A stretch of 64,000 bases of DNA from Verrucomicrobiota bacterium (GCA_016871515.1 VHDE01000013.1:518-64517), one strand, 5' to 3'. Numbered from the stretch's first letter, positions 48,101 through 63,966 are shown. Translations and numbers: made by a program. Notes: a model not told the origin generated them from the sequence alone.

Positions 48101-48395
48101 CTCAGCCTCGGTTCAGTCGTCGGTAGCTGCGCGTTTAAACGCGCAGGCAAACTTAGCATCGAAACATTATCATCACCAACCCAGTTCAACAAAGCTCAAA
48201 TTGAAGTCTCTAATTGGCGGGTTTGATTGAATTGAAAAACTCGACGGAATTTGATCCCGGCTGACTCCTTCATCTGCTTGTGCCACGGAAAGTTTAGTTT
48301 TGTTGCGCGCCCTGCCAACCCCTCGGCTGTGACAATGTTGGAGACTTCGATTGCAGCACCTGTCCGTCGTGAAACAGCTGCGTTGGCGTTTGAAT

Positions 48396-50777
48396 TCATC
48401 TACGAAAGACAAAGTCTTTTGAATTGAGCAAGCCCCACAAAATATCTTCGAACTCCGCTCGGCGATCCTTCGTTGCCTCGAGCGCTGCCAAAAGGCCCTC
48501 TCGTTCTTCGGGCATGGGCGGGCGAGTGAGGGCTGTCCAAAAAAATTCCTCCAGGATTTCGCCGTTTGACTTATCAGCAGCCAGGAGGCGGCTGACACGA
48601 TTCTCCTTTTCCGCCAGCAATCCGTTGATGGCTGAACCACTGATCATTTGAAAGGCCTGGCTCATATTGCATTCGCAGGACCGTTCGGTGTCGGTTGTCA
48701 ACAGCCGCGGGGGTTTTCCGAACATTTCCAAGAATTGATCGAGTTGATTGGATCGCCGCTTGCCTTTGCTCTCGGGACGCACGCCGGGTAATTGCGCGGC
48801 GCGCATTCCAACGGGATAGCTCGCAAATCGGAGCGGGACGCCTGTTACTTGGCTTTGGCAATCCAGCAGTTGTTCTGCGCCCAAGCGGCGGGTAAGCGTT
48901 CGTGAGAAATTGATGTCATCGGCGCCGTTCGTGTTGTTCGGTTCGAAAGACAATTGATAGACGCGCGAATTCATGATCAGCCGAATGATGTGGCGAACAT
49001 CATGATTATGCTCGACGAAGTCTTTGGCCAGCGCGTCGAGCAATGCGGGATGCGACGCAGGATTTGTGGCTCGAAAATCGTCGGGCGGATCGACCAGGCC
49101 TCGGCCCATCAAATGAAACCAGATGCGGTTGACCTGAACGCGGGCGAACAGGGTGTTGTTGGTGCTCGTAAGCCACTCGGCCAGGACTTCGAGGCGGTCG
49201 GGTTCGTGATGCGTGATCCGTGATCCGTGATCCGTGATCTGTGAAGTTAGTCCTCGCTGGTCGGCGGTGGCGCCGAGGAAGCGAGGTTGAGCGTCCTTGC
49301 TGGTGCGGGGGTTCTTTAGGGAACCTGAGCGCGGCGCGAAGACGATTTGTTCGCCGTTCCATTCGTGTTTGTCGCTGCCAATCTCACGCTTGTTCTCGAT
49401 AATCTTATAGCCAACCCGCCCGAAGGCGGCAGCCCAATCGTAGTAATCGTCCTGAGTCCAGCGGTCGGATGGATGATTGTGGCACTCGGCGCATTGCAGG
49501 CGCGCACCGAGAAACACCTGGGCCGTCGCCTTCGCTCGCGAGGCGGGATCGCGATTGGGACGGTAATAGTTGGCGGCGGGATTCTGGTACGTGCTGCCGC
49601 GTGCGCTAATAAGTTCGCGAACGAATTGATCGAGCGGCTTGTTTTCGGCGACACTTTGGCGAATCCAGTGATGAAAAATCTGAACGCCTTTCTGGTCGAG
49701 CGAATGGGCTTCGACTCGCAACAGGTCAGCCCACTTGAGCGCCCAGAAGTCGGCAAACTCCGGTCGATCAAGCAACTGGTCAATAAGCCGCTCTCGTTTG
49801 CCGAAGACCAAACTCTCCATAGCAGCCGACGTGAGGAAGCTCTGATCCGGCGCCGCGTTGGTGCTCGAAGGCTGAGCCTCCTGGCGTCGGCTGCTACGAA
49901 TAGCTGGCACAACGAACGCGCGCGCTTCATCGGCCGTTGGCAGAATGCCAAGCAAATCGAGATACGCTCGTCGCATGAACACTTCATCCGAAGCTAATTC
50001 CGAAGGATTCATTCGCAGCGTCCGAAGCTTCACAAAGATATGGTCGTCGATGTAATTCTGGCGCGGCGTGTCCATCCACGTGAATCCCGGTCGGGCTGGG
50101 ATAAATGCGACTCGAACCGGTTCCTGACAATGCAAGTAGCGAACCAGAATTGTGGTCTCGCCCAGGCCTGCGCGTTGCACTTCGCCCGTCGCGCTCACTT
50201 TCGCGAACGGGTTCGAGGCTTCATAAACTGCGAAGTTGGTTATGTCTCGAACCGAGCCGTCGGAAAACTTCGCCTGGACTTGCAGTTGGAATCGATCATC
50301 GGGATCGATCAAGTTTCGCTCGCCCGGCGCCACCGCGATACCCTGCAGTTTGGGCGACGAACTCACGTCGTCCCGCATGCCTTCAGCGATCCAATTTCGA
50401 AGCGCTTGATAGAGCTCTGAATCTTTTCGAAAACGCAAGCCGCCCTCATGAGCCAACTCTGTGGTCGGCTTCAACAGAATAAGACTTTGTTCCGGATCGA
50501 GCAGGTTGGCGCGGCGACCAAACAACTCGCGTGTTAGCGTTTGGTGATCCGCGTCTGGATCCTGCCCGCGGAGGGAAAGTTTGAATCCGCCCTTGCCGTT
50601 CTTGTTGCCATGACATGTGCCGGCGTTGCAACCGGCTTTCGAAAGCACCGCCATGACATCGTTCCGGAACGAAACCTCAGCGGCTCCGATGCCGTTGCAA
50701 GCCCCAACGAAGCACGCGAGCAGCAGCCAACAGACGCCTCGAGTCAATGGTCGATTGTTGGACCGTCGTGTAAGCAC
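48396..50777 (-). CDS. DUF1549/DUF1553 (PSD1-like) protein with Big_2-like domain
   Basis: 793 aa. Motifs: VLSKAGCNAGTCHGNKNGKGGFKLSLRG, FADFWALKWADLLRV, LGARLQCAECHNHPSDRWTQDDYY, VNRIWFHLMGRGLVDPPDDF, FGKPPR....ER. It is the typical partner of DUF1501. Confidence 0.85.
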   Translation of the reverse strand: MLTRRSNNRPLTRGVCWLLLACFVGACNGIGAAEVSFRNDVMAVLSKAGCNAGTCHGNKNGKGGFKLSLRGQDPDADHQTLTRELFGRRANLLDPEQSLILLKPTTELAHEGGLRFRKDSELYQALRNWIAEGMRDDVSSSPKLQGIAVAPGERNLIDPDDRFQLQVQAKFSDGSVRDITNFAVYEASNPFAKVSATGEVQRAGLGETTILVRYLHCQEPVRVAFIPARPGFTWMDTPRQNYIDDHIFVKLRTLRMNPSELASDEVFMRRAYLDLLGILPTADEARAFVVPAIRSSRRQEAQPSSTNAAPDQSFLTSAAMESLVFGKRERLIDQLLDRPEFADFWALKWADLLRVEAHSLDQKGVQIFHHWIRQSVAENKPLDQFVRELISARGSTYQNPAANYYRPNRDPASRAKATAQVFLGARLQCAECHNHPSDRWTQDDYYDWAAAFGRVGYKIIENKREIGSDKHEWNGEQIVFAPRSGSLKNPRTSKDAQPRFLGATADQRGLTSQITDHGSRITHHEPDRLEVLAEWLTSTNNTLFARVQVNRIWFHLMGRGLVDPPDDFRATNPASHPALLDALAKDFVEHNHDVRHIIRLIMNSRVYQLSFEPNNTNGADDINFSRTLTRRLGAEQLLDCQSQVTGVPLRFASYPVGMRAAQLPGVRPESKGKRRSNQLDQFLEMFGKPPRLLTTDTERSCECNMSQAFQMISGSAINGLLAEKENRVSRLLAADKSNGEILEEFFWTALTRPPMPEEREGLLAALEATKDRRAEFEDILWGLLNSKDFVFRR
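49206..49240. repeat. heptanucleotide tandem repeat (gtgatcc)n inside the DUF1553 CDS
   Basis: The run reads gtgatgc gtgatcc gtgatcc gtgatcc gtgatct, with 3 perfect and 2 imperfect units. It is translated as ...ITDHGSRITHH... Confidence 0.7.
49820..49896. repeat. REP-like inverted repeat embedded in-frame in the DUF1549/1553 CDS
   Basis: The arm tagcagccgacgtgaggaagctc (49820-49842) matches the reverse complement of gagcctcctggcgtcggctgcta (49874-49896) in 20 of 23 positions. It encodes ...SSRRQEAQPSSTNAAPDQSFLTSAA..., a low-complexity stretch inside otherwise conserved sequence. Confidence 0.5.
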
Positions 50778-50869: not shown

Positions 50870-53800
50870 CTAACTTGCCTTGCGGAAGGCGCGGCTCGCG
50901 GCGCCGAATGCAGCCAGTACAACAAACACGCCGATGAGGATCGACAGGCGCAGCCGCCAGGAAGCGGTCCTTGCCGCGACCGCCTCCAGTTCAATCCTCA
51001 AGTCCGCCCATGGATCCACGAGCACGGCACGCTTGAAGGTGAGGAGCCGGCCTTGTTCGGGAATAGACGCGCGCATCGCAACGGGACTGCTGACGGCGGC
51101 ATCCTGCTGCTGAATGAGTCGTTCGGCCAAGCGCATGAAAGCGGCGTTTTCATCCGCGGTGTTGCGATCGATAATCTCCTTCGCGTCCTGTTGGGTGTAG
51201 GTAACTCCTTCGCGACTCCGCAGGTCACGCACCCTTGCGCCCAGTGCCGTGGTGTCACCAGCTACTGCCGCTTGGCGGACGTTCAGCCCGACCAAAGCCT
51301 GTTGCAGCTTCAGATTGTGCAATTGAACGCGAGCATCTTCATTGAACGCGTTGTCATGCTGGCTCAAGCCGTAGGCGGCCTGGAATGCGCGTCGCGCCTG
51401 CTGCGGGTCGCCGCGTTCGAGCAGCGTATTGCCCATAGCCAGGAGTTCCTCGGCTTCTTTCGTTTTGCCGCGTTGCAGAGCAGCCTCATTTTGAAGATAA
51501 GTCTGCAAATCAACCGCGGCGCTCCGAGGCGCCATTTGGTCCTGTTGCAACTGCAGGGTCCCCGCCCAATCTTTGACGCGCCATTTCTCACTGAGATAGA
51601 CCCGCCATGTGATGTCCTCCAGCGGCAAATCAAATTTCGGGGCGAGCAGGTCAAGATCGAGCGAGCGCCTGCGAGATGAACCAATCTTGCTGCTGTAAAA
51701 TATTTCCACTGGGATCGCTTTCCCGGAGCGCGCTTGCGGTTCGAGCGGAACCAAAATGCGGTCCCCTTCGCGCCACGGCCAAACGCCGCTTTGATTCACG
51801 AACGCAAACCAAAAACGCGCGTCTGCTGGTAACGTGAGATAAAGCAAACGTTTGTCGCCTGGCAACATCTCGAGACGCGCTTGCGTGAGCATAACACCAT
51901 CATCGGAAATGACGGAGGTCAGCGTGACATTGTTGACGCGAGCGGGCAAAAGCTTCGCGGCTTCGTGGCGGTCCAGTTTCAATGGCAATTGAAACGACGG
52001 TTCAACGAGACGAAACGCGAAATTGGCCGAGACTGCTGACAAGTCCTGCTGCAGCGCGCGGGGAATGCTTTGCCACTCGGTCGTTTGCAGCGAAGCCGGC
52101 AGCGCATCGATGCGGACTTGTTGACGGCCTCGGGCTTGCACTGTGACGAAGCCGCGTTGCAGGTTCACGTCCGCCGTTTGGACGCCACGCAGAACGGTCT
52201 CGGTCGCGGTGTCTGCGACGGCAGTCTGATAAGTGACTTGCAACAAGTATCGACCAATCACACGCCGATGCAGCTTGATTTCCCACGCTTGCAAATTATT
52301 CGTCACCCCGCCTGCAATTGGGAGGAAACCGGAAACTTGGTCGCCTTGAAAACGGACGCTTCCGGCATTGGTCGGCAAGAAAACGCGGAACGCTTTCAAG
52401 CCCGTGTTCTCGATCTGGTATTGCAAGTTTGCCCCAACGTTTACCAGGGCTTCACTGACAGTTGCATGTTGCAGGCTCGTCACCTGAATCCACGGATCGA
52501 CTTGTTCGATGTCCAGCGCCAGATTCCACGGAACCTGCAGAATGCGGAAGGCGAGCACGCCCTTCTGCTGGATGCCTGTCTTTTGCGGGTCCAGCTGTGT
52601 CACGCCATTGCGCGTGCCCGGTTGCAGCCGCATGCCTTGGTCCGGCACAATCAAGAGAGTTCCGCGCTGCTTGCTGGCTTCGCGCAAAACGAGCTGTGGA
52701 ACGGCCCAATTGTTCGTGGTCTTAACACCGGCTCCCGACAAACTGATGGCGAACTGTTGCGGCCCGGCCGTCTTGCCGCGCAAGTGCAGCGTGATAATCC
52801 GTCCAGCATCAGCGCGCAACTCGGTCCAATGGCTCAACGCTTGGCCACTGATCGACTCCACATCGAGCGCGCCGGGCAACACAAAACTCAGGCGGAAAAT
52901 GCCCGCGCGCGTAATATCGACCGACAGGTTCGACGCAAGAACTGTCCGGTCTTCGCCCAATGATACGGTGTCCTGTGTTTCGACGCGCACGTCCGGCTCG
53001 ACTGGAGAGGCTCGGACCGAAACCGTAGCTCCAGTCTCCGTGTATCGAAACGCGCGGCGGACGGTCAGCTCAGGAATCTGCGCCTGGAGCATTTGCGGTG
53101 CGCTAACGGGATAATCTTCGAGATTGATCGGGGAGAGATTGCCTGCGTTCACGGAATCGAGTTGAACTTCGCGGCCCGTCGCAATACCAAGCAAACCGAT
53201 CTGCCCCGCCGCCTGCTCGATAGAAAGAAGTCCAATCGATTGTTCAAAGGGCAATGGGCCGGTAGGAACTTGTGAGCGGATCAGCAGCGTGAAAGGACGC
53301 GACTGCGCCGGGTTCAAATTCACGCGGAGCCTGCGCGTGTCGGGATCGAAACGCCAGAGCGACGCGATCGATTTTGGTGGCAGTGGTTGGTTGGTGGCGG
53401 CATCGGTCCCGGGTGTAGGATCGATTGCGCTGACATCCGTGATCGTCGCGCCGGTTGGGACGTTAAAGACAAGCTCCGTAAGTTCTCCCTGGGCCGGGCG
53501 AATGACGGCGTGATGCGCACCTTCAATTACACCCGCAGTCGGGACGTAAAGTTGAGAGATTTCAGCATAGAAGACCGCTCTTTCCCGCTTCACATCACGG
53601 CTGCGCGGGCGCCAGTTGATCCAGGCGTCGTTCACGGGCGCGAGGACGAGGTTCGCCATGGTGTTGCTGTTGGAAGTCGTGCGTTCGATGGAAGCGGCCT
53701 GCGCTGAGAATACGTCCACATCAAGATTGGCGAGGGTCAACCGAAGCGGATTGATCAACCCATGTTGCGTGGGGAGAACGAAGCCGCTTTCGCTAAGCTT

Positions 53801-56800
53801 GGCCGTCACGTGGATTTGGTATCGCAATTCGACATCGAACGCGCCGGTTTCCAAAGCTAGCAACTGATGCGCACGCCTGCCGTTGGCCGGAGCCTGAATC
53901 AGTCTGAGTGCGTTCGTCGGATAAACAACGCTCGTCAATACGGCCGGCTCGAACAGGAGAGGAAGCGTCTGGTTTTTCTCGGCCGTCCAATGGATCTTGG
54001 CCGTGCCGAGCGCGAACCTTTCTTCGACGCGAATTTCCTGCGCGACCGATTCGGCCAGCGCCGGCGCTCTGGGAAATGGAGTAGGGGTGTAAAGGGCGGC
54101 GGGAACTGGATTGGCTTGCGGATTGGCCGTCTGCGCCTGAGCAACCAGCAGCGTGCCATCGTAACGCAGAGTTCCACTCTGCTGTATCGCAGACTTGTAG
54201 TCTGCAGCGAGTCCGAGAGCCGAGACATTCCCGCGAGATCGAGCGTTCTGCCGACTGAAAGTCGGCGATACAGCAGAGTGAAACTCTGCGTTACGAGGCG
54301 CGCTCGAATGCGCAATGACCGGCGGCGCGGATTCAGACCACAGTGACAGCAGGGTTCCAATGAGCAGCGATGCCACAGCCGGCGCCGGGCCGCTGTCCGG
54401 CGGAGTCAGCGCCGCGGACTTTGGTTTTCTTGGCAGTTGCCAAAGCCGGCGCAGAGCCGGAATCAAAGTGTGGAGCAGTAAGAAGAGGAGAATAATTACG
54501 ATGAAACTCGGCGCTCCGCCGGGTGCCCGCAGTCCCGCCCAGGCCACAAGCGTCCATCCGAACAGCCATCCGACCGCCGTGAACCACATGCGATTCGTGA
54601 TCCATCCATAAACCCAGACCACCAGCGCAAGCAATGCCGGCCATGCGTAGCCAAGGAAACTGAACACCGTGGCTTCAGCTTTGATGTTTGCTACTTCGAC
54701 GTTAAGCCCAGTGCCGGCTTGTTGTACTGGCGCTAGAAACGTTACCTCGCGCGAAACAGCGACGTTCTGCTGCGCGGCCAAGTCACCAAGGCTGATCAGT
54801 GCTGCGATCGCCATAGCCACGGCTATCAGACCCAGGACCGTCCCGAACAGATGGCGCGCGCTGTATCTGTAAACGCCTTCACGCACCGTCCATCGCCAAA
54901 CCACAAGCGCAATCCCAACTAATAACAGCGCAGCAATCAGCGAAACCAGAGCTTGCGCAGCGTCCAGACCGCTGAATGCTTTGTTCAACTGGGCGAAGCC
55001 AGAAATATCGGCGACACCATCCACAGGCGTCAGTGAACCCCGGCGATAGATCAAACGTTGTCCTGCGTCTGGCGCAAGTTTCCATTCTGCGAGCATCACG
55101 GGTGCGGCGACGATTGGTGTGGCGATGGCCACCCGTTTGGGGGTTGTTGACCGCGAAGCCAACTTAACGTCCACGGCCAGGACCGCGTTGGGATCCGCTC
55201 GCTGCGGCAAGGGAATCATGTTCGCTTGTCCATCCAGGACCGGCACGACCGGAGCGCCGTTCACTGTTGCGGACCACAATTGCGTTCCAGCCGGGAGCGT
55301 CACTCGGAAATGTGAATTGCCGCGATTCTTGACGAAATAATGCGCGTCCGTCAGGACTTGTCCTTCTTTCGAAATTCGTGTCAACAGCGACGCCCGGTCA
55401 ACGACTTGGCTGAGAGAATCGCCCTGGACCAGCGGGTTGAGCGCGAGCCGCAAATTGAATGGCCGCGATGTGTAACGATAAGCCGCGAGAACTGGCGCAT
55501 CGAAGAAGAGTCGATATTCCGGAGGCACTTCACCAGTTTCGAGCGGCAACAATCCTGGCGACACATCCACCGGATTGACCTGAAATTGATACGCGCTAAT
55601 CACCAGCGTGTGGCCTTGTTCCGATTGCGCGTCGAGCGGGCGCGCTCCGGTAAATGCGAGCGTTTCGCCTTGCGCTCGAAACGGCCGCTCATAGGTTGCG
55701 AGCAGCGTATAAGCGCCGGACACGGGCGAGTGCAATTGCACGACGTAGCCATTGGTCGCTCTTTGCCAATTGCGAATGTCTTTGCCGATAAACTCGACGT
55801 TGAAGTATTCGTTCGAGAGCTCGATCCTCAGCGTTGATATCGGCGCGCCTGAAACCAGATAGTGCATCACGCTGCTGCCGTAAGCGATGCCTTCGCCGAT
55901 GGAAAAAAGATGGAAAGCATCCGCTTGCACCGTCTGCGGCAAACGCTCCACGCGCAACGTTGCCTGCCAAGCCGGTTCGCTGAGTCGAAATGCCAACTGA
56001 ATGCCAGCGACCTTGCGCGGAAAGAACGCCGTTGCGATCTCGGTCAATGCTTGGGTCCTGTCGGGTGTGATGCGGAAACCCGCATCCGCCGAGACGCCCA
56101 AATGGCCACGCACCGATTTCGCTCGGGAAATCTCGATCCGTGGCAACACCCAATTAGTTTGGCCCAGCGCTTGATGGCGTTCGACGCGGAGCTGAACGAT
56201 TTGCCGGCCGGAAACAGGTTGGCCATACACCAGACGCAGTTCGGCGTCTGGATCGCCCTCCGGCTCGCGCAGAAAATAATCGCTCAGGCCGGACGCGTTC
56301 AGGCGCGCGATGGCATATCCTTTTGGGACGCGCATCAGCAACTCCCGCATGGGCGCTTCGCGGATGTCCAATTCAAACTCCGCGTCGATGGCGAGTTCGT
56401 TCTCGGCGTGATGATATGCGAGCACTTCGGAGACGCTGAGTTCAGGCAAGATTTGGTCCGCTTGAATTCGCAGGGAGAATTCGCCGCCAGAAAAGCGATA
56501 AGCAAACCGCTGGCTGCCGCCAGTCGCAAAGAGCGTTCTCGTGACGTCCGTTTCCGGAAATTGTTCGGGAGAAATCTGAGAAAGTCCGGCGGCTTGGACA
56601 ACTTCGAGGCGCACCGCACCTTCGTTGAGTATCCGAACATAACCAGCTAAACGGGTCGCGCCTTCAGGCCGTAGTTGCATGGCATCGACGGCTTGGGGAA
56701 GCGCCCCGATGGATGTCTGCATTTGAACTTGGAGCGCGAACTGATCTTTCTGGGGTTGATTAAACTGAATGACGAGGCGCCGGCCAGCAGAGTTCGCAAT

Positions 56801-58174
56801 AGGTTCAACATTCCATGCGAGCACATGAGCGCCTTGGACACGTGTGACTTCGCCGGCGCCGCGCAACAACAAGGCGACGCGGTTCAACTCGCCTTGCATG
56901 ACTTTGAAATCAAGCAACGCCATTTGCCGCATGAGCCCGGGACTGACGCCGATCTGAGAAAGCATTTCGGCCGCGTAGAACAGTTTGCCCTCGGCTTCGC
57001 GCCGAGCTTCTTTCCAGGAAAGTTTCACCGCGCCGTCCGCCGGAAGGTAACCCACGAATTGGCTGCCAGCGCGTTCGGGCCGAGCCGCCCCGGGAAACTC
57101 GAACTGAGTATCGGCGATCAATCCTTCGAGAGCGATCGGTTGCAATGCACTCGGTGCAACGCGGAAATCGACTGAGTTCCAACCATTGGTTTGGCTAACT
57201 GCGGCCTTGAACTTGAGCTGAATGGGAAATTCGCCCGACCGATCGAACGCAATGATGAAGCGGCCTTGCTCGAACCGGAGACGCCAATGTGGATGCGTTT
57301 TCAGATCGGTCAAAGCAATGTTCCCTTGCAACAGCGCTATCGAACCGCCGCGCGGATTTTTGATGCGCGCGTTGGCGGTCAAGACAAAGCTTACCGTTTG
57401 GTCGCTGAGTTGCCCGCTCAGCTTAAAGTCGCGCAACACAACTCGGCGCGCTTCGGGGTCCGCGATCGTAATGCGGAGCGGGATATGGTAGGGCGAGCCG
57501 TGGAAACGGAAGGCGAGCGGATCTGGACTATCCGGCTTGGCCTCGATGCGCAATGATGATGGCAAGAATTTGGGATCGATGGGCGCCAGGCCGGTGGGGC
57601 TGTCGGGCTGGACATCGAGGTCCGGCGTCACTTCAATCGTCACGTAACCGTTGAATAACGCTGGACTGGATGGAGTGAGGGTTAAGGCGGTTAATGGATT
57701 CGTCCATGTGCGGAGATCGCGTTCGGCCGAAATCGTGACCGAAAGTTGCGTGATTGGTTTGTCGCTTTTGCGAGGGCGAAGGATCAGCGTGCGCACGCCG
57801 TTGGTTTCTTGGCGGATGCTCCAATCTTGCAGCAACTCGCCGGTGACCTGGCGTATTTCACCTTCCCCGCTGATCGTGAGTGGGAGTTCTTTGGGCTCGC
57901 CTTGAAGAATGTCGAAGGTGGCTGCGATGGAATGGGCGATTTTTTCGCGCGAGACTTTGATCGAGTGCTGGAGAGCGGTGGCGTAAATAAGCTTGTCTTT
58001 CTCGCCGGACAAACCGCTGAGCACCGCTTCGATGATCAGCCGCGCCCTCCCGTCTTCGACGCCGCCGTTGATGGAAAGGTTTCTTAATTCTGCGGTCGCG
58101 CCCGAAACGTTGTTCGCGGTCAGGATCGATAACGCAAGGAGGATGGATATGGGGATGCGTACGGGAATGTTCAT
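50870..58174 (-). CDS. giant hypothetical membrane protein (2434 aa): two paralogous beta-rich halves, each ending in TM segment(s), joined across a REPIN
   Basis: Uninterrupted ORF with the N-terminal signal peptide MNIPVRIPISILLALSILTANNVSG. The first half ends in ~5-6 TM helices. The second half ends in a TPR-like segment plus one TM helix (LSILIGVFVVLAAFGAA). The halves share blocks such as VTLPAGTQLWSATVNGAPVVPVLDGQANMIPLP and LTLPADARFWFAFVNQSGVWPWREGDRILVPLEP. It may really be two genes. Confidence 0.6.
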   Translation of the reverse strand: MNIPVRIPISILLALSILTANNVSGATAELRNLSINGGVEDGRARLIIEAVLSGLSGEKDKLIYATALQHSIKVSREKIAHSIAATFDILQGEPKELPLTISGEGEIRQVTGELLQDWSIRQETNGVRTLILRPRKSDKPITQLSVTISAERDLRTWTNPLTALTLTPSSPALFNGYVTIEVTPDLDVQPDSPTGLAPIDPKFLPSSLRIEAKPDSPDPLAFRFHGSPYHIPLRITIADPEARRVVLRDFKLSGQLSDQTVSFVLTANARIKNPRGGSIALLQGNIALTDLKTHPHWRLRFEQGRFIIAFDRSGEFPIQLKFKAAVSQTNGWNSVDFRVAPSALQPIALEGLIADTQFEFPGAARPERAGSQFVGYLPADGAVKLSWKEARREAEGKLFYAAEMLSQIGVSPGLMRQMALLDFKVMQGELNRVALLLRGAGEVTRVQGAHVLAWNVEPIANSAGRRLVIQFNQPQKDQFALQVQMQTSIGALPQAVDAMQLRPEGATRLAGYVRILNEGAVRLEVVQAAGLSQISPEQFPETDVTRTLFATGGSQRFAYRFSGGEFSLRIQADQILPELSVSEVLAYHHAENELAIDAEFELDIREAPMRELLMRVPKGYAIARLNASGLSDYFLREPEGDPDAELRLVYGQPVSGRQIVQLRVERHQALGQTNWVLPRIEISRAKSVRGHLGVSADAGFRITPDRTQALTEIATAFFPRKVAGIQLAFRLSEPAWQATLRVERLPQTVQADAFHLFSIGEGIAYGSSVMHYLVSGAPISTLRIELSNEYFNVEFIGKDIRNWQRATNGYVVQLHSPVSGAYTLLATYERPFRAQGETLAFTGARPLDAQSEQGHTLVISAYQFQVNPVDVSPGLLPLETGEVPPEYRLFFDAPVLAAYRYTSRPFNLRLALNPLVQGDSLSQVVDRASLLTRISKEGQVLTDAHYFVKNRGNSHFRVTLPAGTQLWSATVNGAPVVPVLDGQANMIPLPQRADPNAVLAVDVKLASRSTTPKRVAIATPIVAAPVMLAEWKLAPDAGQRLIYRRGSLTPVDGVADISGFAQLNKAFSGLDAAQALVSLIAALLLVGIALVVWRWTVREGVYRYSARHLFGTVLGLIAVAMAIAALISLGDLAAQQNVAVSREVTFLAPVQQAGTGLNVEVANIKAEATVFSFLGYAWPALLALVVWVYGWITNRMWFTAVGWLFGWTLVAWAGLRAPGGAPSFIVIILLFLLLHTLIPALRRLWQLPRKPKSAALTPPDSGPAPAVASLLIGTLLSLWSESAPPVIAHSSAPRNAEFHSAVSPTFSRQNARSRGNVSALGLAADYKSAIQQSGTLRYDGTLLVAQAQTANPQANPVPAALYTPTPFPRAPALAESVAQEIRVEERFALGTAKIHWTAEKNQTLPLLFEPAVLTSVVYPTNALRLIQAPANGRRAHQLLALETGAFDVELRYQIHVTAKLSESGFVLPTQHGLINPLRLTLANLDVDVFSAQAASIERTTSNSNTMANLVLAPVNDAWINWRPRSRDVKRERAVFYAEISQLYVPTAGVIEGAHHAVIRPAQGELTELVFNVPTGATITDVSAIDPTPGTDAATNQPLPPKSIASLWRFDPDTRRLRVNLNPAQSRPFTLLIRSQVPTGPLPFEQSIGLLSIEQAAGQIGLLGIATGREVQLDSVNAGNLSPINLEDYPVSAPQMLQAQIPELTVRRAFRYTETGATVSVRASPVEPDVRVETQDTVSLGEDRTVLASNLSVDITRAGIFRLSFVLPGALDVESISGQALSHWTELRADAGRIITLHLRGKTAGPQQFAISLSGAGVKTTNNWAVPQLVLREASKQRGTLLIVPDQGMRLQPGTRNGVTQLDPQKTGIQQKGVLAFRILQVPWNLALDIEQVDPWIQVTSLQHATVSEALVNVGANLQYQIENTGLKAFRVFLPTNAGSVRFQGDQVSGFLPIAGGVTNNLQAWEIKLHRRVIGRYLLQVTYQTAVADTATETVLRGVQTADVNLQRGFVTVQARGRQQVRIDALPASLQTTEWQSIPRALQQDLSAVSANFAFRLVEPSFQLPLKLDRHEAAKLLPARVNNVTLTSVISDDGVMLTQARLEMLPGDKRLLYLTLPADARFWFAFVNQSGVWPWREGDRILVPLEPQARSGKAIPVEIFYSSKIGSSRRRSLDLDLLAPKFDLPLEDITWRVYLSEKWRVKDWAGTLQLQQDQMAPRSAAVDLQTYLQNEAALQRGKTKEAEELLAMGNTLLERGDPQQARRAFQAAYGLSQHDNAFNEDARVQLHNLKLQQALVGLNVRQAAVAGDTTALGARVRDLRSREGVTYTQQDAKEIIDRNTADENAAFMRLAERLIQQQDAAVSSPVAMRASIPEQGRLLTFKRAVLVDPWADLRIELEAVAARTASWRLRLSILIGVFVVLAAFGAASRAFRKAS
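54160..54295. repeat. 136-bp REPIN, 'gcagaGtttcaCtctgc' variant, inside the giant ORF
   Basis: Terminal arms are cgtaacgcagagttccactctgctgtatcg and cgatacagcagagtgaaactctgcgttacg, with internal hairpins gcagacttgtagtctgc and ccgactgaaagtcgg. It is translated in the ORF frame as RNAEFHSAVSPTFSRQNARSRGNVSALGLAADYKSAIQQSGTLRY. Confidence 0.85.
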
Positions 58175-58190
58175 GAGCAGTGTTCTGGAA

Positions 58191-58219
58191 ATCGCGATAA
58201 CCGAAAAAACAAGCGCTCC
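58191..58219 (-). promoter_or_regulatory. candidate ECF-type promoter (GGAGCG-N17-CGCGAT) upstream of the giant ORF
   Basis: The minus-strand sequence reads ggagcg cttgttttttcggttat cgcgat, ending 16 nt before the ATG at 58174. It resembles the GGAGCA-N16-CGTCTA box upstream of the ECF sigma gene at 63315. This is pattern match only. Confidence 0.2.
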
Positions 58220-58223
58220 GGAC

Positions 58224-58454
58224 CGTAACGCAGAGTTTCACTCTGCTGTATCGCCGACTTGCAGTCGGCAGAGCACTCGACCTTGCGGAAACTTCTCGAT
58301 TTGGCGGACGCGCTGCAGATTGGAAATCTGCGATACGGCAGAGTAAAACTCCGCGCTACGATCTGGCACTCGAATTTGTGGGAGCTTCTCGATTGTCGGA
58401 CACGCCGCAGAGTGAAACTCTGCGATACAGCAGAGTGAAACTCTGCGTTACGCC
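58224..58454. repeat. 231-bp REP cluster (one 137-bp REPIN plus a partial REPIN with tandem hairpins), left flank of RAYT
   Basis: By eye it is identical base-for-base to 59243-59473. It starts cgtaacgcagagtttcactctgctgtatcg and ends gcagagtgaaactctgcgatacagcagagtgaaactctgcgttacgcc. Confidence 0.9.
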
Positions 58455-58536
58455 GCTGGCCGCGACATTGAGGTTGCAAATAACCGAGTCGACGCGCTAG
58501 CCTCCGCACGTGTTTCCCAAGGAGGAAAATCCGCGG

Positions 58537-59247
58537 ATGGATCGAGTGCGCTTTGAGCTTCGTTCGGACGGGATCAAACCGGAGGAAACAAACCCGTTGC
58601 GTTCCGGTGTTCATACACGAGGCTATCTGCCACACGTCAAGCGCGAAGGCGCGCGTTACTTTGTGACATTTCGCCTCGCCGATTCGTTGCCCAAAGAGGT
58701 CTTGCTCAAGTATCAGGCGGAGCGCGGGGAGCGGTTGCAGCTTTTCTATGCGCAGCACGACGCCGCGAAAGGCCCGGGGACAGCCCTCCCGAAGCAAGAG
58801 ATGCTGGAAGAAATCGAGCGCGAGTACAATCGCAAGGTCGAGCGTTATCTTGATCAAGGCTGCGGGGAATGCTGGCTGAGACGACCCGAAATTGCGGACT
58901 TGGTCACTGAAGCCGTGCGATTCTTTGATGGCAAGCGATATTGGCTGGATGCTTGGGTTATCATGCCAAATCACGTGCATGGTGTCTTGTGGCCGGCGCC
59001 GAACCACTCGTTGAGCCATATCCTGCAAAGCTGGAAAAGCTACACAGCTCGGCAGGCGAACAAAGTTCTCAATCGGACGGGACATCCATTTTGGCAACGA
59101 GAGGCATTCGATCATTGGATTCGCGATGATGAGGAACATGCGCAGTGCTGTCGTTATGTGACAAACAATCCGGTAAAGGCTGGCCTGTGTGCAACGCCGC
59201 GGGACTGGAAATGGAGCAGCGCGTGGGGTGATGGCCAGCCATCGTAA
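58537..59247 (+). CDS. REP-associated tyrosine transposase (RAYT; IS200-like Y1/HUH family)
   Basis: ORF 58510..59247 with ATG at 58537, preceded by aaggagg (58519-58525). HUH motif in WVIMPNHVHGVLWP. Downstream blocks: SWKSYTARQAN, FWQREAFDHWIRD, YVTNNPVKAGL, W.WSS. N-terminal block GYLPHV. The TAA stop lies inside the right REP cluster. Confidence 0.8.
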   Translation: MDRVRFELRSDGIKPEETNPLRSGVHTRGYLPHVKREGARYFVTFRLADSLPKEVLLKYQAERGERLQLFYAQHDAAKGPGTALPKQEMLEEIEREYNRKVERYLDQGCGECWLRRPEIADLVTEAVRFFDGKRYWLDAWVIMPNHVHGVLWPAPNHSLSHILQSWKSYTARQANKVLNRTGHPFWQREAFDHWIRDDEEHAQCCRYVTNNPVKAGLCATPRDWKWSSAWGDGQPS

Positions 59248-59473
59248 CGCAGAGTTTCACTCTGCTGTATCGCCGACTTGCAGTCGGCAGAGCACTCGAC
59301 CTTGCGGAAACTTCTCGATTTGGCGGACGCGCTGCAGATTGGAAATCTGCGATACGGCAGAGTAAAACTCCGCGCTACGATCTGGCACTCGAATTTGTGG
59401 GAGCTTCTCGATTGTCGGACACGCCGCAGAGTGAAACTCTGCGATACAGCAGAGTGAAACTCTGCGTTACGCC
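59243..59473. repeat. 231-bp REP cluster, right flank of RAYT
   Basis: Identical to 58224-58454, at an offset of 1019 bp. Confidence 0.9.
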
Positions 59474-59525
59474 TTTGGGCAGTTTCTATGCGTGGGATGA
59501 ATTGGTTCGGCCTGTTCATCTCGAT

Positions 59526-62500
59526 CTATCTTCCCGCCATGCTCTTCGCTTGCCGGATCATCCATTCGAGCTTTTTAGGACGTGCATCGGCGCCATAGAC
59601 TTCGGGCACACCATTCAGTTGCGCGAGCAAACGGTCGGTCGTCACTTCGCCGGCGTATGGACTTGAAATGAGCCATTCCGAGAACGCACTTGCGGTCGCG
59701 GCTAGGCGCATAGCCGGCCCAGCTTGTTCCAACGCCACAGCATTTCCGCTGTAAGGCACCGGCCATTCATGCTCGCGATATTCGGTTGTATTCGGTTTCT
59801 TGTATCGCACTCGCACGACGGCCAACGGCCCGTCCCCCTGCGGATTCACCTCAACGACGTAAAGCGCGTTGCCCGATTCCGCCGCACCAATCTCGGCCGC
59901 ATCGACGGTGTTATCGCGGAATTGTTCTTTGGTCAGCTGATGTTTGGCATACCCGATTTGGCGGCAGGCCGTCACCCGTTTCGGATTGAATTCAACCTGA
60001 GCTTTAACATCCGACGCTGCCACTCGCAGAGAGCCGGCGAGTTGAGCGACAAAACCAGTTGCGGCCTCAGCCGGTGTGTTAATAAAACCGTAACGCCCAT
60101 CACCATTGCGCGACAGCACCTCCAACAAATCGTCGTTGAAACCTTCCCACCCAATTCCGAAGCAATCGAGCGCGATCCCTTGTTTGCGATGATTTTCAAC
60201 TTTCCGCTTCAGAGTGTCCGGATTAACGTCACCGAGATTCGCCGCGCCGTCGGTGAGCACCACGACGCGGTTGCCGCCGCTCACGTAATGCCGCAACGCC
60301 GTCGCGTAGGCGAGATTCAGCGCATCTTCGAGATTGGTGCCGCCTTGTGGTGCGAGTTGGCTCACCCGTTCCGCGACCTGGGCCGCTTGGTTGCCTGGCG
60401 CACCATCCACCCAGAGCCGGGCTGTGCGCGCAAACGCAATGACACTGAGTTTGTCTTCGGGCTTCAATTGCGTTGCCAACACGCGCAATGCCTCCCGAAG
60501 AATCTGCACGCGATCCGCCCGCTCCATCGAGCCGGAGTTGTCGAGCAGCAACACGAGATTCAACGGCTGGCCGGGTTGACGGCCTTGCGCCGCCGTCTTG
60601 ATCGAGAAACGCAGCAAATCACGATTATGCGCGAACGGATAGCGAGCGCGTTCCCAAGCAAAGGCTACGGGGACATCTGGCGGCGGCTCGGAATCGCCGT
60701 AATCGAACGCATTGATGAATTCTTCGCTGCGCACGGTCGCAGGCTCGGGCATGACTCCCTTTTCCAGACTGGCCAAGGCAAGCTTGAACGACACATCGCT
60801 GACGTGCAGCGAGAAGGTCGAGAATGCGTTTTCGCGCGTCTGGACTTCGGGCTGCGGAACTGGCGCGCCAGCCACGGGTTTGCGCACGGCTGTATCGGCC
60901 TCTTCTCGGTTGGACTCTCCACGCAGGCGATCAAGTTCCGTGTGCGCTTGAGCATCCTTTTTCTCCTGCTCGGCAAGCTGTTCTTTCAAGACACGAGCGC
61001 TATCGTCGGCCGCCTGTTTGCTCCGTTCCGCGCGTAAATCGCGATAAACCTCGGCGATGGTGTTGGCGATCTGGGCAGCCTCTTCTGGTTGATCGCTCTT
61101 CACTCGAATATCGAGTTCGCTCGAATTGGGAACCTGCCGCACATCAACGCGGCCTAATAGCGCTTGAAATGCTTCGGCATTATTCAGCTTCTCGCCCTTG
61201 CCATGCTTCTCGGCCCAAGCTTCATTCAGATTCAATTTCTCAATCACCTTGTAGAGAACTTGCTTGGACTTGACCTTCTCGAATTCAGTCGTGACGAAGT
61301 AGGGATCGAATCCAACTTGAGGCTGAGCGCGCGTCACGAGCGGCGCCATATCAGTCGCATCTTTCCCGACGCTGATGCGCGCGCTTCGTTCGACTTTCCC
61401 GCTCAACGCTCCGCCGATGCGTCCCCACAAGCTTGAATCTCGTGGTGACTCAGCTTGCGCAACATCGACAATCTGGACAGGACCATTGTTAGGCGCGAGC
61501 GGCGGTCGACTTGCTCCTGTAGCTGACCGGGTCGCATGACCTGCGCGCAATTCACCCCATTCACGTTTGGCTTTGGACTGCGGTGTCTCCTGCGCGACTT
61601 GAAGCTCTTCGATCCGTTGTGTCGACTCGGCTGGTCTCGCTCCAGACTTGCTTTCAGTGCCTGGCTTGGCTGCTTTGGCGAGGGTGCGTGCTCCAATATC
61701 CGCTGCCCACGCCTGGTTCCGCGGCTGACCAACCTCTGCCTCTGCCTCTATTGGTGGAAGAACAATGGACGACCGATTCGACTCCCGCAGCGCCTCCTCT
61801 GTCACTTTGGAATCTTTTCCGAGGCTGCTCATGCCCGGGCGCATCAACCCATAACGTTCCACATCCATATCGCGAATCGTCTTGATTCGAACCTCGCCAT
61901 CTGGCGGCGCTGCTGTAGTGGAAAAGTCGGATTTTAAACTGGAGACAACGCCGGCGTTTTTGCTGGGAATTATGCCTAAGCTATCGCCGAGGGCTGCGAG
62001 AGGTTTCCCGATCGATTCGCGCTGCGACTGAACATTGTCGATCACAGCCGCGCCGAAGTCCTTCTTGTTCACACCAAATTCCAAAGCTCCGTTCTCTGCG
62101 GCAGCCACTGCCACGAAGGATGTTTCCTTTGAGCGCTCGAGCCGCCTGGCGAATCCCGGCAGCAACGCGACCGTGCCCAGTAGCGCGACCAATGCGGCGG
62201 CAAGGCTCATCGGGACAAACCAACGGCTCTCTCGATGGACTGAGGCGGCGAATTCCTTCGGGGCAACCGTCTTAAAATGCTGCAGCAGCTTCTCGCGCCG
62301 TTCAGCGGACAATCGCAGGGGCGTCTGTTGCGCAGCCGCTTGTTCCACCGGGTTGGCTGCAACTTCAGCGACCAGCCCAATCGTTTGCTTGAGGCGTTCA
62401 TGAAGTTGCGCCAGTTCGGCATCTTGCGCGATCTCCTCGCGCAAAGCAGCAGCTTCTTCCGGCGATAGCTCCCCGTGCAGCAGAGCAGTTAAGCGCGCTT

Positions 62501-62576
62501 CCATTTGTTCGCGCGGTGTTTCAGAAAAACCGTCGTTCATAAAGAGCCCCTTCGGATTTCGATGTGTGAGAGGCAT
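59526..62576 (-). CDS. anti-sigma factor fused to GumC/Wzz-like and YfbK-type vWA (vWA + DUF3520-like) periplasmic domains
   Basis: 1016 aa, with an alternative start at ATG 62540 (MNDGFSE...). The N-terminus EARLTALLHGELSPEEAAALREEIAQDAELAQLHERL is typical of an anti-sigma domain. TM helix WFVPMSLAAALVALLGTVALL. Chain-length-determinant-like block KSKQVLYKVIEKLNL...VDVRQVPNSSELDIRVKSDQPEEAAQIANTIAEVYRD followed by a coiled coil. Then STFSLHVSDVSF..., the MIDAS motif LVLLLDNSGSM, VVVLTDGAAN and a C-terminal YfbK-like tail. Confidence 0.75.
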   Translation of the reverse strand: MPLTHRNPKGLFMNDGFSETPREQMEARLTALLHGELSPEEAAALREEIAQDAELAQLHERLKQTIGLVAEVAANPVEQAAAQQTPLRLSAERREKLLQHFKTVAPKEFAASVHRESRWFVPMSLAAALVALLGTVALLPGFARRLERSKETSFVAVAAAENGALEFGVNKKDFGAAVIDNVQSQRESIGKPLAALGDSLGIIPSKNAGVVSSLKSDFSTTAAPPDGEVRIKTIRDMDVERYGLMRPGMSSLGKDSKVTEEALRESNRSSIVLPPIEAEAEVGQPRNQAWAADIGARTLAKAAKPGTESKSGARPAESTQRIEELQVAQETPQSKAKREWGELRAGHATRSATGASRPPLAPNNGPVQIVDVAQAESPRDSSLWGRIGGALSGKVERSARISVGKDATDMAPLVTRAQPQVGFDPYFVTTEFEKVKSKQVLYKVIEKLNLNEAWAEKHGKGEKLNNAEAFQALLGRVDVRQVPNSSELDIRVKSDQPEEAAQIANTIAEVYRDLRAERSKQAADDSARVLKEQLAEQEKKDAQAHTELDRLRGESNREEADTAVRKPVAGAPVPQPEVQTRENAFSTFSLHVSDVSFKLALASLEKGVMPEPATVRSEEFINAFDYGDSEPPPDVPVAFAWERARYPFAHNRDLLRFSIKTAAQGRQPGQPLNLVLLLDNSGSMERADRVQILREALRVLATQLKPEDKLSVIAFARTARLWVDGAPGNQAAQVAERVSQLAPQGGTNLEDALNLAYATALRHYVSGGNRVVVLTDGAANLGDVNPDTLKRKVENHRKQGIALDCFGIGWEGFNDDLLEVLSRNGDGRYGFINTPAEAATGFVAQLAGSLRVAASDVKAQVEFNPKRVTACRQIGYAKHQLTKEQFRDNTVDAAEIGAAESGNALYVVEVNPQGDGPLAVVRVRYKKPNTTEYREHEWPVPYSGNAVALEQAGPAMRLAATASAFSEWLISSPYAGEVTTDRLLAQLNGVPEVYGADARPKKLEWMIRQAKSMAGR

Positions 62577-62581
62577 GGCGC

Positions 62582-62717
62582 CGTAACGCAGAGTTTCACT
62601 CTGCCGTATCGCAGAGTTTCACTCCGCGGCGCGCCCGCAATTCCAAAGCCCACCGACAGATCGAACGCTCTGCCGACTGCAAATCGGCGATGCGGCAGAG
62701 TGAAACTCCGCGTTACG
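62582..62717. repeat. 136-bp REPIN, 'gcagaGtttcaCtctgc' variant, between the ECF sigma and anti-sigma genes
   Basis: Terminal arms are cgtaacgcagagtttcactctgccgtatcg and cgatgcggcagagtgaaactccgcgttacg, with 2 arm mismatches. It fills almost all of the 151-bp sigma/anti-sigma spacer. Confidence 0.85.
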
Positions 62718-62727
62718 GGGTTTTCCG

Positions 62728-63315
62728 TCATGGGATAACTCCGGTTTTGGCCAATTCGTCAGCGATGCTTTTCAGCGCATGATGCAGAAGGTAACCGACG
62801 TGACCCACGGTGAGACCGGTCCGGGCGCTGATTTCTTTATAGGACAAACCTTCGTTGAACTTCAGCCGGATCAACTCGCGGCTGCGTTCGTCGAGTGTCT
62901 CCAAACTGAGCCGCACCAGACCGATGCCTTCCCAGCGCGCGATTTGTTCGTCCGGCAGCGGCTGAGGATCGGTGATTTCTGGTTCGGCAGATGCGGGACG
63001 GTCTTCCGACGATGAAGCTGAAGTCTGCGCGAGCGGGATAATCTTGCCGGACTGTCGCCGTTGGTTTAGCGCGAGATTGTGCACCGTGCGATAGAGCCAT
63101 CGCCTTGGCTCGCGCACTTGATCAAACTGTGCATGCAATTTCATGAAAGCGTCTTGAACAACATCTTCAGCGAGACTCAATTCCTGAACAAAGCGCAGGG
63201 CATAACAGAGGAGCGGCGATTCCAGAGCGGCAAAAAGCTCCTCAATCGTTTCCGGTCGTGGTGATGCCACACTAACGTCTTCTCTTCGGCCCACGGCCAT
63301 GCCTGGGTGAGTCAT
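62728..63315 (-). CDS. RNA polymerase ECF-type sigma-70 factor
   Basis: 195 aa. Region 2 is EDVVQDAFMKLHAQ...WLYRTVHNLALNQRR. The region 4 HTH is RSRELIRLKFNEGLSYKEISARTGLTVGHVGYLLHHALKSI. Confidence 0.85.
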   Translation of the reverse strand: MTHPGMAVGRREDVSVASPRPETIEELFAALESPLLCYALRFVQELSLAEDVVQDAFMKLHAQFDQVREPRRWLYRTVHNLALNQRRQSGKIIPLAQTSASSSEDRPASAEPEITDPQPLPDEQIARWEGIGLVRLSLETLDERSRELIRLKFNEGLSYKEISARTGLTVGHVGYLLHHALKSIADELAKTGVIP

Positions 63316-63406
63316 TTCATTCTATTCGCGATTTCCATTTAACTGCCTTAGTCGCAACGCTGGCAGTTGCCGGTCTCACTAGTATGACACGCGAGAGCAG
63401 CAATTC

Positions 63407-63435
63407 TTAGACGATTTCTTCGGGAATTTTGCTCC
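63407..63435 (-). promoter_or_regulatory. candidate autoregulated ECF-type promoter (GGAGCA-N16-CGTCTAA)
   Basis: The minus-strand sequence reads ggagca aaattcccgaagaaat cgtctaa, about 90 nt upstream of the ATG at 63315. It is one mismatch from the generic ECF -35 GGAAC, with a CGTC-type -10. This is pattern match only. Confidence 0.25.
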
Positions 63436-63555
63436 AGAATCGTGCGGATAAAGTGCCAGGCCTGAAATGGCCTAACTAACGCGTCAAACTGGCTTGCGCC
63501 GCACCAGTTCAGTTTTGTATGAATTGCCGGAACGCTTGCAACTGCCGACGTCGCA

Positions 63556-63966
63556 GTGAAAACCAAACCGAAACTTGGCGCCATCTGCCAAAAGCAATTC
63601 GTCGTCGAGCGATCACATGCGATTGACTTCGCCGACGACAAAATGCCGGCGGTTCTCTGTACGCCCTGGCTCATTTGGTTTCTCGAACACACGGCGCGCG
63701 AGGCTGTGCTGCCGTGGCTGGAGAATGGAGAGAGCACAGTCGGCATCGAGATCGAAATTTCCCACTTGGCGCCCACTCCAGTCGGACAAACCGTGACGTG
63801 CCTGGCGCGCGTGGTGCATGCGGATGGTGCTCGGGTTTCCTTCCAACTCGAAGCTCGCGATCAACACGAACTGATCGCGAGGGGCTCCCACAAACTCCAG
63901 ATCATTCGCGTGGACCGATTCGCCAGCAGGGTCCACCGCAAGCGTGGGCCTTTAGATTCAGGTTAG
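63556..63966 (+). CDS. hotdog-fold thioesterase (FlK/fluoroacetyl-CoA thioesterase-like family)
   Basis: 136 aa with a GTG start. Blocks VLCTPWLIWFLEHTAREAV, GESTVGIEIEISHLAPTPVGQTVT and ARGSHKLQII resemble the VlaTP.li...E / VG..v...HlaptpvG pattern of this thioesterase family. Confidence 0.65.
   Translation: MKTKPKLGAICQKQFVVERSHAIDFADDKMPAVLCTPWLIWFLEHTAREAVLPWLENGESTVGIEIEISHLAPTPVGQTVTCLARVVHADGARVSFQLEARDQHELIARGSHKLQIIRVDRFASRVHRKRGPLDSG

Follow-up and report, generated by a model that had tools for sequence, protein, structure and literature searches.

A stretch of 64,000 nucleotides from a Verrucomicrobiota bacterium (GCA_016871515.1, VHDE01000013.1:518-64517; henceforth the window) encodes, at positions 59526..62576 on the minus strand, a protein that resembles an anti-sigma factor at one end and a vWA (von Willebrand factor A) protein at the other, with a piece of a polysaccharide co-polymerase (PCP) in between. 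The question that this gene raises is what such a protein could sense, and through which of its parts. The original prediction, made from the sequence alone, took the protein for an anti-sigma factor of the extracytoplasmic function (ECF) type that belonged to no described class and that would couple sigma release to a protein or metal ligand bound by vWA or to the state of an envelope polysaccharide. We consider it reasonably likely that this gene, together with those for a sigma factor and a giant protein, makes up a self-contained cassette of the Verrucomicrobiota that probably regulates its own expression, that its product is the cassette's single-pass anti-sigma factor, and that sensing proceeds through the vWA head. 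The protein architecture, the homologies, the invariance of the metal ion-dependent adhesion site (MIDAS) in the head, the conservation of the cassette and the promoter motif were all computed. The cassette is laid out in the window as follows:

63382..63416, minus strand: bipartite promoter-like element AATCGTCTAAGAAT-N13-GTGTCATAC, about 70-100 nt upstream of the sigma start, the sole copy in the window by position weight matrix (PWM) scan
62728..63315, minus strand: ECF (group 4) sigma factor gene, 195 amino acids, with Pfam PF04542 Sigma70_r2 and PF08281 Sigma70_r4_2 above cutoffs
59526..62576, minus strand: the predicted anti-sigma gene
50870..58174, minus strand: third cassette gene, encoding a 2434-amino-acid envelope protein of no known family, recognized by its conservation and topology

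As predicted, the anti-sigma gene directly follows the sigma gene, whose product scores 80.3 bits against TIGR02937 (cutoff 42.9). A search with the full anti-sigma protein returned about 100 close relatives of 900-1,750 amino acids, all from Verrucomicrobiota. These share the N-terminus (~110 amino acids) and the vWA module, and their middle region is hypervariable in length and content; in other orthologues it holds Secretin_N, TPR or PATR domains or pseudopilin-like transmembrane (TM) segments. The original prediction had proposed a search for the same architecture in other genomes. When this was run, with one genome scanned per species, at least 575 genomes were found to encode relatives, nearly all of them labelled as Verrucomicrobiota metagenome-assembled genomes, e.g., Limisphaerales, Pedosphaera and Chthoniobacter.

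To count gene contexts we fetched 84 independent loci, and the counts cover those with room on the contig. A same-strand ECF sigma gene was directly upstream of the anti-sigma gene in 68 out of 68 loci, and a homologue of the 2434-amino-acid open reading frame (ORF) of the window was directly downstream in 58 out of 58. The genes that flank the cassette vary between loci. A 4-bp overlap joins the sigma and anti-sigma genes in two loci (L006 and L088), and in many orthologous loci the two abut or overlap; a +1 position with a 4-bp overlap is a hallmark of sigma/anti-sigma pairs. The cassette is complete in the cultured Chthoniobacter flavus Ellin428 (GCA_004341915.1, SLWZ01000005.1, about 217.5-240.7 kb), where the anti-sigma protein has PATR instead of the PCP-like module. 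Two distant relatives, with only ~30% identity in the vWA module, are encoded right after ECF sigma genes, and no giant gene accompanies them.

The protein had been put forward as a member of an undescribed anti-sigma class, and this claim goes too far. Anti-sigma factors with DUF3520 and vWA domains are already listed for group ECF289, where they are described by domain content (Casas-Pastor 2021; PMC7826278), and the distant vWA/YfbK relatives mentioned above also follow ECF sigma genes. The broad class is already catalogued, on bioinformatic grounds only, and the literature searched contained no experimental study of any ECF289 member. The strictly conserved sigma/anti-sigma/giant-protein cassette appears to be new. 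Of note, the conserved third gene had gone unmentioned in the original prediction, as had the insertions of repetitive extragenic palindromes (REP) and of a REP-associated tyrosine transposase (RAYT) gene that are described below.

The predicted ORF proved to be real: its frame is uninterrupted over 1016 codons, and the motifs that had been quoted from it were found in their places. The NCBI annotation gives the longer 1016-amino-acid form (MBM3832678.1, “DUF3520 domain-containing protein”). The true start is probably Met13, at 62540, which would yield a product of 1004 amino acids, because all homologues recovered, as well as one 100% identical 1004-amino-acid metagenome protein, begin at query Met13 and because a Shine-Dalgarno-like run (GAAGGGG) precedes this codon at a suitable distance. 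With residues numbered from the first codon of the ORF, the parts of the protein are:

62274..62540, minus strand: cytoplasmic anti-sigma-like domain, residues 13-101, with three confident helices and a fourth, from anti-sigma profile matches and the AlphaFold2 (AF2) model
62148..62219, minus strand: single TM helix, residues 120-143, Kyte-Doolittle peak 2.25, AF2 helix at 108-126 in the numbering of the 1004-amino-acid form
61590..62147, minus strand: disordered periplasmic tether, residues ~144-329, with an AF2 predicted local distance difference test (pLDDT) score of ~25-30 and no secondary structure
60912..61394, minus strand: PCP-like half-domain, residues ~395-555, from homology to EpsF/GumC-type co-polymerases and fold match
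60846..60911, minus strand: Pro-rich linker, residues 556-577, from sequence and low pLDDT
60609..60845, minus strand: N-terminal vWF_A domain (PF12450), residues 578-656, with a score of 48.3 bits (cutoff 25)
60069..60560, minus strand: VWA domain with intact MIDAS, residues 673-836, with Pfam VWA, VWA_2 and VWA_3 above cutoffs
59529..60032, minus strand: YfbK_C/DUF3520 (PF12034), residues 849-1016, 104.6 bits against a cutoff of 25

The full-length AF2 model was built on an alignment of 35 homologues. It places three helices at ~21-74 (pLDDT 84-90) and a fourth at ~91-101, followed in order by the TM helix, ~185 unstructured residues, a short helix and strand, the module at ~395-555, the Pro-rich linker and the vWA region. 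The low-complexity region noted in the original prediction is recovered as the ~185-residue stretch modelled as disordered, a tether that is part of the hypervariable middle region of the family. The TM helix has the sequence RWFVPMSLAAALVALLGTVALLPGF. In a few orthologues the TM segment of the anti-sigma protein resembles the methylation segment of type II secretion pseudopilins and type IV pilins (GspG, PilA and N_methyl, with geopilin in the PDB search); the window protein is without a pilin-like TM segment.

Is the N-terminus an anti-sigma domain? The window protein alone scores 14 bits against zf-HC2 (E 0.044) and matches NCBIfam NF052375 “anti-sigma factor” with E 5e-6. Among 26 N-termini of the family, NF052375 matches 25 (best E 5.5e-10; ~27 bits vs a cutoff of 100), Pfam zf-HC2 matches 18 (14.3-19.4 bits vs a cutoff of 22.2) and NF010501 “putative anti-sigmaE protein” matches 8. 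A PDB profile search with the family N-terminus returned RsiW as the sole anti-sigma entry (E 0.19). Residues 1-800 contain no Cys, so the N-terminus is not a zinc-binding anti-sigma domain, and the H-x3-C-x2-C zinc motif was not found in it; that motif defines only the zinc-binding anti-sigma (ZAS) subclass of class I anti-sigma domains. The expectation of a standard ECF anti-sigma domain followed by a single TM helix holds for the one TM helix and for the consistent matches to anti-sigma profiles. It fails on the zinc motif, with its Cys and His residues, and on the sub-threshold zf-HC2 scores. Because the profile matches, although sub-threshold, are consistent and the gene invariably occupies the +1 position after the sigma gene, the product is a probable anti-sigma factor of the adjacent ECF sigma factor, with predicted binding to it.

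At the other end of the protein, vWF_A, VWA and YfbK_C follow one another in that order. Each scores above its Pfam gathering threshold, both in the window protein and in every one of the 35 homologues aligned, and no other part of the protein is as well conserved as this vWA module. The MIDAS residues D679, S681, S683, T747 and D776 (DxSxS...T...D) are invariant in all 35. The earlier assignment of a vWA domain with an intact MIDAS and a YfbK/DUF3520-like tail was thus correct. Foldseek matched the vWA part to ArnB, ITIH1 (inter-alpha-inhibitor heavy chain), SpaC, PitA, BatB and the anthrax-toxin receptor, at E values as low as 1e-15; SpaC and PitA are pilus-tip adhesins, and the matched VWA proteins bind ligands. 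We take the vWA head as the conserved sensor of the family because it is invariant and the PCP-like module is optional. A literature search retrieved no functional study of YfbK/DUF3520. The combination of a TM helix, a disordered linker and a YfbK-like vWA head recurs in proteins that cross the periplasm (PMC12204202).

The PCP/GumC-like segment was likewise real. The window protein matches NCBIfam EpsF with E 3.9e-8, far under the full-length cutoff of that model, and alone it stays below the Pfam Wzz threshold. A search of PDB sequences with the single PCP-like segment gave only chance matches (globin, L31), so a family profile was required to detect the relationship. With a profile made from an alignment of 33 family sequences, the only meaningful matches among all PDB sequences were Wzc (best E 7.6e-6) and PslE, and both the “E..iqS..vL.k.i..L.L” helix and the beta-hairpin/helix motif aligned. 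Individually, 13 of the 33 family members match Pfam Wzz. The AF2 model of the segment (core pLDDT 88-97) consists of a strand, four short helices, a beta-hairpin and one helix of 65 residues. The half-domain comprises an alpha/beta base (strand, helices and beta-hairpin) and one ascending helix of ~59 residues (~9 nm). The top 50 PDB matches of this model in Foldseek are all KpsE or Wzc (prob ~1.0, E from 2e-3).

Searched against 1.84 billion representative proteins, the profile gave 14,305 matches. The best of these outside the anti-sigma family are proteins of 470-540 amino acids with Pfam Wzz (40-45 bits, cutoff 25.5) and GNVR, and are genuine GumC/EpsF-type co-polymerases. Residues 398-552 of the window protein are 43% identical (E 2e-29) to residues 56-209 of the verrucomicrobial Wzz and GNVR co-polymerase P0204, and the match starts exactly at the exit of P0204 from its first TM helix (TM1). 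The gene encoding P0204 adjoins a gene for a BBP2_2 beta-barrel.

The hallmarks of a complete PCP are missing from the window protein. Its sole TM helix (120-143) lies ~250 residues before the module, and no TM helix comes after it. No GNVR match was found at E ≤ 1, and instead of a helical hairpin the AF2 model shows a single long helix that gives way to the disordered linker, with no descending helix. The protein is homologous to PCPs over a fragment and is not itself a PCP by the features that define them. The original description of a three-part extracytoplasmic region is right in that the disordered stretch, the PCP segment and the YfbK-type vWA are all present, with the correction that the PCP segment is only a half-domain. 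In the inspected contexts, no PCP, Wza, Wzx, Wzy, ATP-binding cassette (ABC) export or glycosyltransferase genes are conserved beside the cassette, and another PCP-like ORF was found neither in the window nor in the 9 kb around any of the cassettes.

Searches by tblastn and by Hidden Markov Model detected the module in 26 out of 78 full-length orthologous loci. On a tree of the vWA domain its distribution is clustered but patchy, with 15 inferred changes where random labels give ~24, and the module is reconstructed as absent at the midpoint root; this is a neighbor-joining tree of a highly conserved domain and hence weak evidence. On that evidence we did not retain the possibility that the module is ancestral to the family; the distribution suggests that it was gained and that repeated gain or loss followed. 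Because it occurs in only 26 of the 78 orthologues, the module is accessory; it belongs to a set of stalk modules that can replace one another, it is not the sensor that the family conserves, and its role is most likely that of a rigid spacer or an oligomerisation stalk. The proposal that it serves as the core sensor of an “envelope-polysaccharide state” does not agree with this sparse occurrence, with the lack of the TM helices, GNVR and return helix, or with the absence of conserved export genes nearby.

The same PCP-like module was found as the extracytoplasmic part of three BlaR1-type M56 peptidase sensors (P0198, P0229 and P0232), at 40% identity (E 3e-34). In the sole such locus inspected (L089 4819-7283), the gene for P0198 follows a BlaI/Penicillinase_R repressor gene with a 4-bp overlap. 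A literature search retrieved no description of an anti-sigma factor with a PCP-like module, and the use of this module in BlaR1/BlaI sensors appears to be new as well.

The regions upstream of the sigma genes share a conserved motif. Within 260 nt upstream of 69 sigma genes, the dyad TCTAA-N17-TGTC occurs 57 times (57/69), compared to 4 or fewer in shuffled controls. The full consensus is tttCGTCTAAGAAA-N13-GTGTCATA, with CGTCTAAGAAA-N13-GTGTCATA as its short form, and it lies 72-126 nt before the approximate sigma start. The invariant GTC of the downstream half resembles the -10 elements of ECF sigma factors. We scanned 1.35 Mb of loci on both strands with the PWM and detected 60 sites, comprising 57 upstream of sigma genes and three just past the stop codon of the anti-sigma gene, ahead of the giant gene, with none elsewhere. 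In the window, the PWM scan found no second copy before the giant gene, and a scan of 58000-63600 for sigma-70 promoters and intrinsic terminators revealed nothing informative. Because the sites sit upstream of the sigma genes and, in three cases, ahead of the giant gene, the motif is a candidate ECF autoregulatory promoter; its placement supports positive autoregulation and assigns the giant gene to the transcription unit, or at least the regulon, of the sigma and anti-sigma genes. The cassette-specific promoter appears to be new, and it offers a ready-made reporter.

The giant protein starts with a signal peptide and an extracytoplasmic half of ~1,040 amino acids. Four TM helices separate this half from the second one, after which come a weak TPR-like stretch and, at the C-terminus, a TM anchor. 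Its two halves (~1,000 amino acids) are homologous to each other (E 2e-29), and thus derive from an ancient internal duplication. Orthologues are 60-69% identical, and family members range from 2,200 to 2,430 amino acids; the representative in Chthoniobacter flavus Ellin428 is WP_006980149.1. The protein is conserved in hundreds of Verrucomicrobiota, where it is called hypothetical apart from one UniRef label, and it has no match in Pfam, NCBIfam or PDB-profile searches. That label, “Alpha-2-macroglobulin domain protein” for the Chthoniobacter orthologue, was rejected: there is no alpha-2-macroglobulin (A2M) or MG match in Pfam at E ≤ 10 and none in NCBIfam, and the PDB profile search was empty.

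In the window, the cassette has been invaded by repeats at several points:

62588..62711, no strand assigned: REP hairpin cluster between the sigma stop and the anti-sigma start, from repeat copies
58225..59470, no strand assigned: REPtron between the anti-sigma and giant genes, made up of the RAYT gene and two REP clusters
58510..59247, plus strand: RAYT gene, NF047646 REP_Tyr_transpos E 5.8e-29, 100.8 bits against a cutoff of 80

The RAYT gene is flanked by two near-identical direct copies (~230 bp) of a composite REP cluster (58230-58446 and 59249-59465). The hairpin GCAGAGT-TTC-ACTCTGC is present in 13 copies in the window, where 0.02 are expected, and all 13 lie within the cassette. A further REP cluster (54166-54289) is in frame within the giant ORF, at ~aa 1296-1337, in the linker that joins the TM block to the second half, and is translated as “...RNAEFHSAVSP...ADYKSAIQQSGTLRYDG...”. 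The giant orthologue of another locus (L001) has a similar peptide at the same place (“GADLQSAVSQ...IGDTAGYKT”), which indicates that this insertion is tolerated and possibly old.

These observations can be assembled into a sequence of events. The cytoplasmic N-terminal helical domain would sequester the sigma factor. A tether made of the ~185-residue disordered stretch, the PCP-derived base with its ~59-residue helix (~9 nm) and the Pro-rich linker would hold the vWA head at a long distance from the inner membrane; half a co-polymerase domain, copied from an EpsF/GumC-type protein, is part of the tether in this organism. The MIDAS of the head would engage an acidic residue on a ligand that lies either in the outer periplasm or at the outer membrane, and the best candidate for this ligand would be the co-encoded giant protein or something that it assembles. 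A change in the occupancy of the head or in the tension of the tether would expose the anti-sigma factor to regulated proteolysis, and the freed sigma factor would transcribe the cassette from its own conserved promoter, with expression of the giant protein as the probable output of the system. Sigma binding, the ligand, proteolytic release and the role of the PCP-like module are the steps that we infer.

Several points weigh against this reading. The contact between the vWA head and the giant protein is predicted, and the giant protein could be a regulated output only. Sigma binding by the N-terminal domain is also predicted, and no anti-sigma profile reaches its curated cutoff (zf-HC2 14-19 vs 22.2 bits; NF052375 27 vs 100 bits). 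No protease gene is linked to the cassette. The occurrence of the PCP-like module in BlaR1/BlaI sensors hints that it may be more than a spacer and may itself take part in signalling. Finally, the REP/RAYT insertion parts the giant gene from the operon here and no second promoter copy precedes that gene, so co-transcription is uncertain in this organism.

We weighed three other explanations. In the first, which takes up an idea of the original prediction, the PCP-like module is the real input and the vWA head is secondary: the module would dock into or mimic an EpsF/GumC-type co-polymerase ring, or bind nascent polysaccharide, and sigma release would report the state of exopolysaccharide export. 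The 43% identity to genuine Wzz and GNVR co-polymerases and the PCP-like fold fit such a role; PCP periplasmic domains are known to oligomerise, as the Wzc and KpsE structures show, and the independent recruitment of the same module as the extracytoplasmic part of BlaR1/BlaI-type sensors suggests a signalling input. We nevertheless regard it as unlikely, given that the two thirds of orthologous cassettes without the module keep the sigma gene, the vWA head, the giant gene and the promoter, and that the module is patchy on the vWA tree. Its missing TM1, second TM helix (TM2), GNVR and descending helix speak against it too, as does a neighbourhood in which PCP, Wza, Wzx, Wzy and glycosyltransferase genes are not conserved and further PCP-like ORFs are absent from the window and from the 9 kb around each cassette.

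An explanation that we find somewhat less probable still is that the protein is mainly a trans-envelope tether, adhesin or force transducer, linked to the sigma gene by co-expression only and with an N-terminus that does not bind sigma. A YfbK-like vWA head joined through a disordered linker to a TM helix has been proposed to act as a TolA/TonB-like force transducer beside TolQR-like motors in bacteria of the Planctomycetes-Verrucomicrobia-Chlamydiae (PVC) group (2025; PMC12204202). The topology of the window protein matches that proposal, and every anti-sigma profile match is sub-threshold. However, the motor-coupling motifs, SHLS/His or a TolR-like Asp, were not found in the window TM helix, which contains no His and no Asp, and tolQ/tolR/exbB-like motor genes were seen in none of the inspected contexts. 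In addition, the cytoplasmic domain of ~100 amino acids is conserved and matches anti-sigma models in 25 of 26 members, the gene is always at +1 after an ECF sigma gene, often with the 4-bp overlap, and the distant vWA/YfbK relatives likewise follow ECF sigma genes. A multi-domain ORF could also arise as an assembly or annotation artefact, or as a decaying pseudogene joined by the nearby REP/RAYT activity, and REP clusters and the RAYT gene do lie on both flanks, while the annotated start differs between NCBI (Met1) and JGI (Met13). This explanation is effectively refuted, and we give it almost no weight: identical 1004-amino-acid proteins occur on independent contigs from several metagenomes, relatives of the same end-to-end architecture occur in at least 575 species-level genomes, and the frame is unbroken and conserved throughout. 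The anti-sigma factor with a vWA sensing head remains the reading that we prefer.

A bolder version of that reading, which we offer as speculation and consider rather improbable, is an undescribed trans-envelope device in which the MIDAS head docks on the giant protein and provides feedback on an envelope structure, with swappable stalks, the PCP stalk plugging into an EpsF-type ring. If this were true, the feedback loop would monitor the assembly or integrity of a large verrucomicrobial envelope structure. The stalk modules (PCP half-domain, Secretin_N, PATR repeats and pilin-like TM segment) would adapt the device to different envelope machines, and in PCP-bearing lineages sigma activity would be coupled to polysaccharide export.

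Sigma/anti-sigma pairs of the ECF type constitute the third major mode of signal transduction in bacteria, and we know of no vWA/DUF3520-type anti-sigma factor whose signal or mechanism is known. This family is a clean entry point, with one strict three-gene cassette, a reporter-ready promoter, an invariant MIDAS that can be mutated and at least one cultured host (Chthoniobacter flavus Ellin428). It also reveals a family of very large proteins (~2,400 amino acids, in hundreds of species) with no recognisable domain. The reuse of half a co-polymerase domain in two unrelated transmembrane signalling families, the anti-sigma factors and the BlaR1-type sensors, bears on the evolution of sensor modules. 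What makes the locus interesting is chiefly that it has a conserved cassette, a giant protein of no known family and a portable PCP half-domain; the domain combination itself contributes little. Current understanding is not overturned, and we regard the findings as a solid lead.

Two other regions of the window were annotated. Adjacent genes at 46703-50777 on the minus strand encode a PSCyt2/PSD1 (DUF1549/DUF1553) protein and a DUF1501 protein, a gene pairing that is common in Planctomycetes and Verrucomicrobia. At 42657-45653 on the plus strand, a 998-amino-acid protein carries eight bacterial TSP3 repeats, a calcium-binding Binary_toxB-like domain and a malectin domain, and is probably secreted, calcium-binding and carbohydrate-binding.

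We compared the window protein with known systems. Like the class I anti-sigma domains (zf-HC2; RsiW, RslA and ChrR), it has a helical N-terminus of ~90 amino acids followed by one TM helix and is encoded directly after the sigma gene, and its first helix gives the weak zf-HC2 and RsiW matches; it differs in lacking H-x3-C-x2-C and in that all profile scores are sub-threshold. The anti-sigma factors of ECF289 (PMC7826278), compared by domain content only, are likewise encoded at +1 behind an ECF sigma gene and have VWA and DUF3520/YfbK_C domains in their extracytoplasmic part, whereas their description mentions no PCP-like insert, giant downstream gene or comparable promoter. Escherichia coli YfbK and the TM helix-linker-vWA “force transducers” of PVC bacteria and Proteobacteria (PMC12204202) have the same vWF_A/VWA/YfbK_C head, which in the transducers, as here, sits at the end of a long periplasmic tether with one TM anchor, but the window protein has an anti-sigma-like cytoplasmic end and an adjoining ECF sigma gene. 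With the polysaccharide co-polymerases (Wzz, Wzc, KpsE, GumC and EpsF) it shares, by homology and fold, the membrane-proximal alpha/beta base and the ascending helix, and it is without their TM1/TM2 flanks, GNVR/Pro-rich motif, descending helix, kinase and neighbourhood of export genes. The BlaR1/BlaI-type sensors have in common with it the PCP-like module and, in the one locus inspected, a transcription regulator encoded just upstream, but they signal through an M56 metalloprotease whose target is a BlaI-type repressor, and they have no vWA head. Although it contains neither a FecR nor an STN domain and its neighbourhood lacks a gene for a TonB-dependent transducer, its topology is analogous to that of the FecR-type anti-sigma factors of cell-surface signalling, which follow a similar logic: a single-pass protein whose periplasmic part spans to a partner at the outer membrane.

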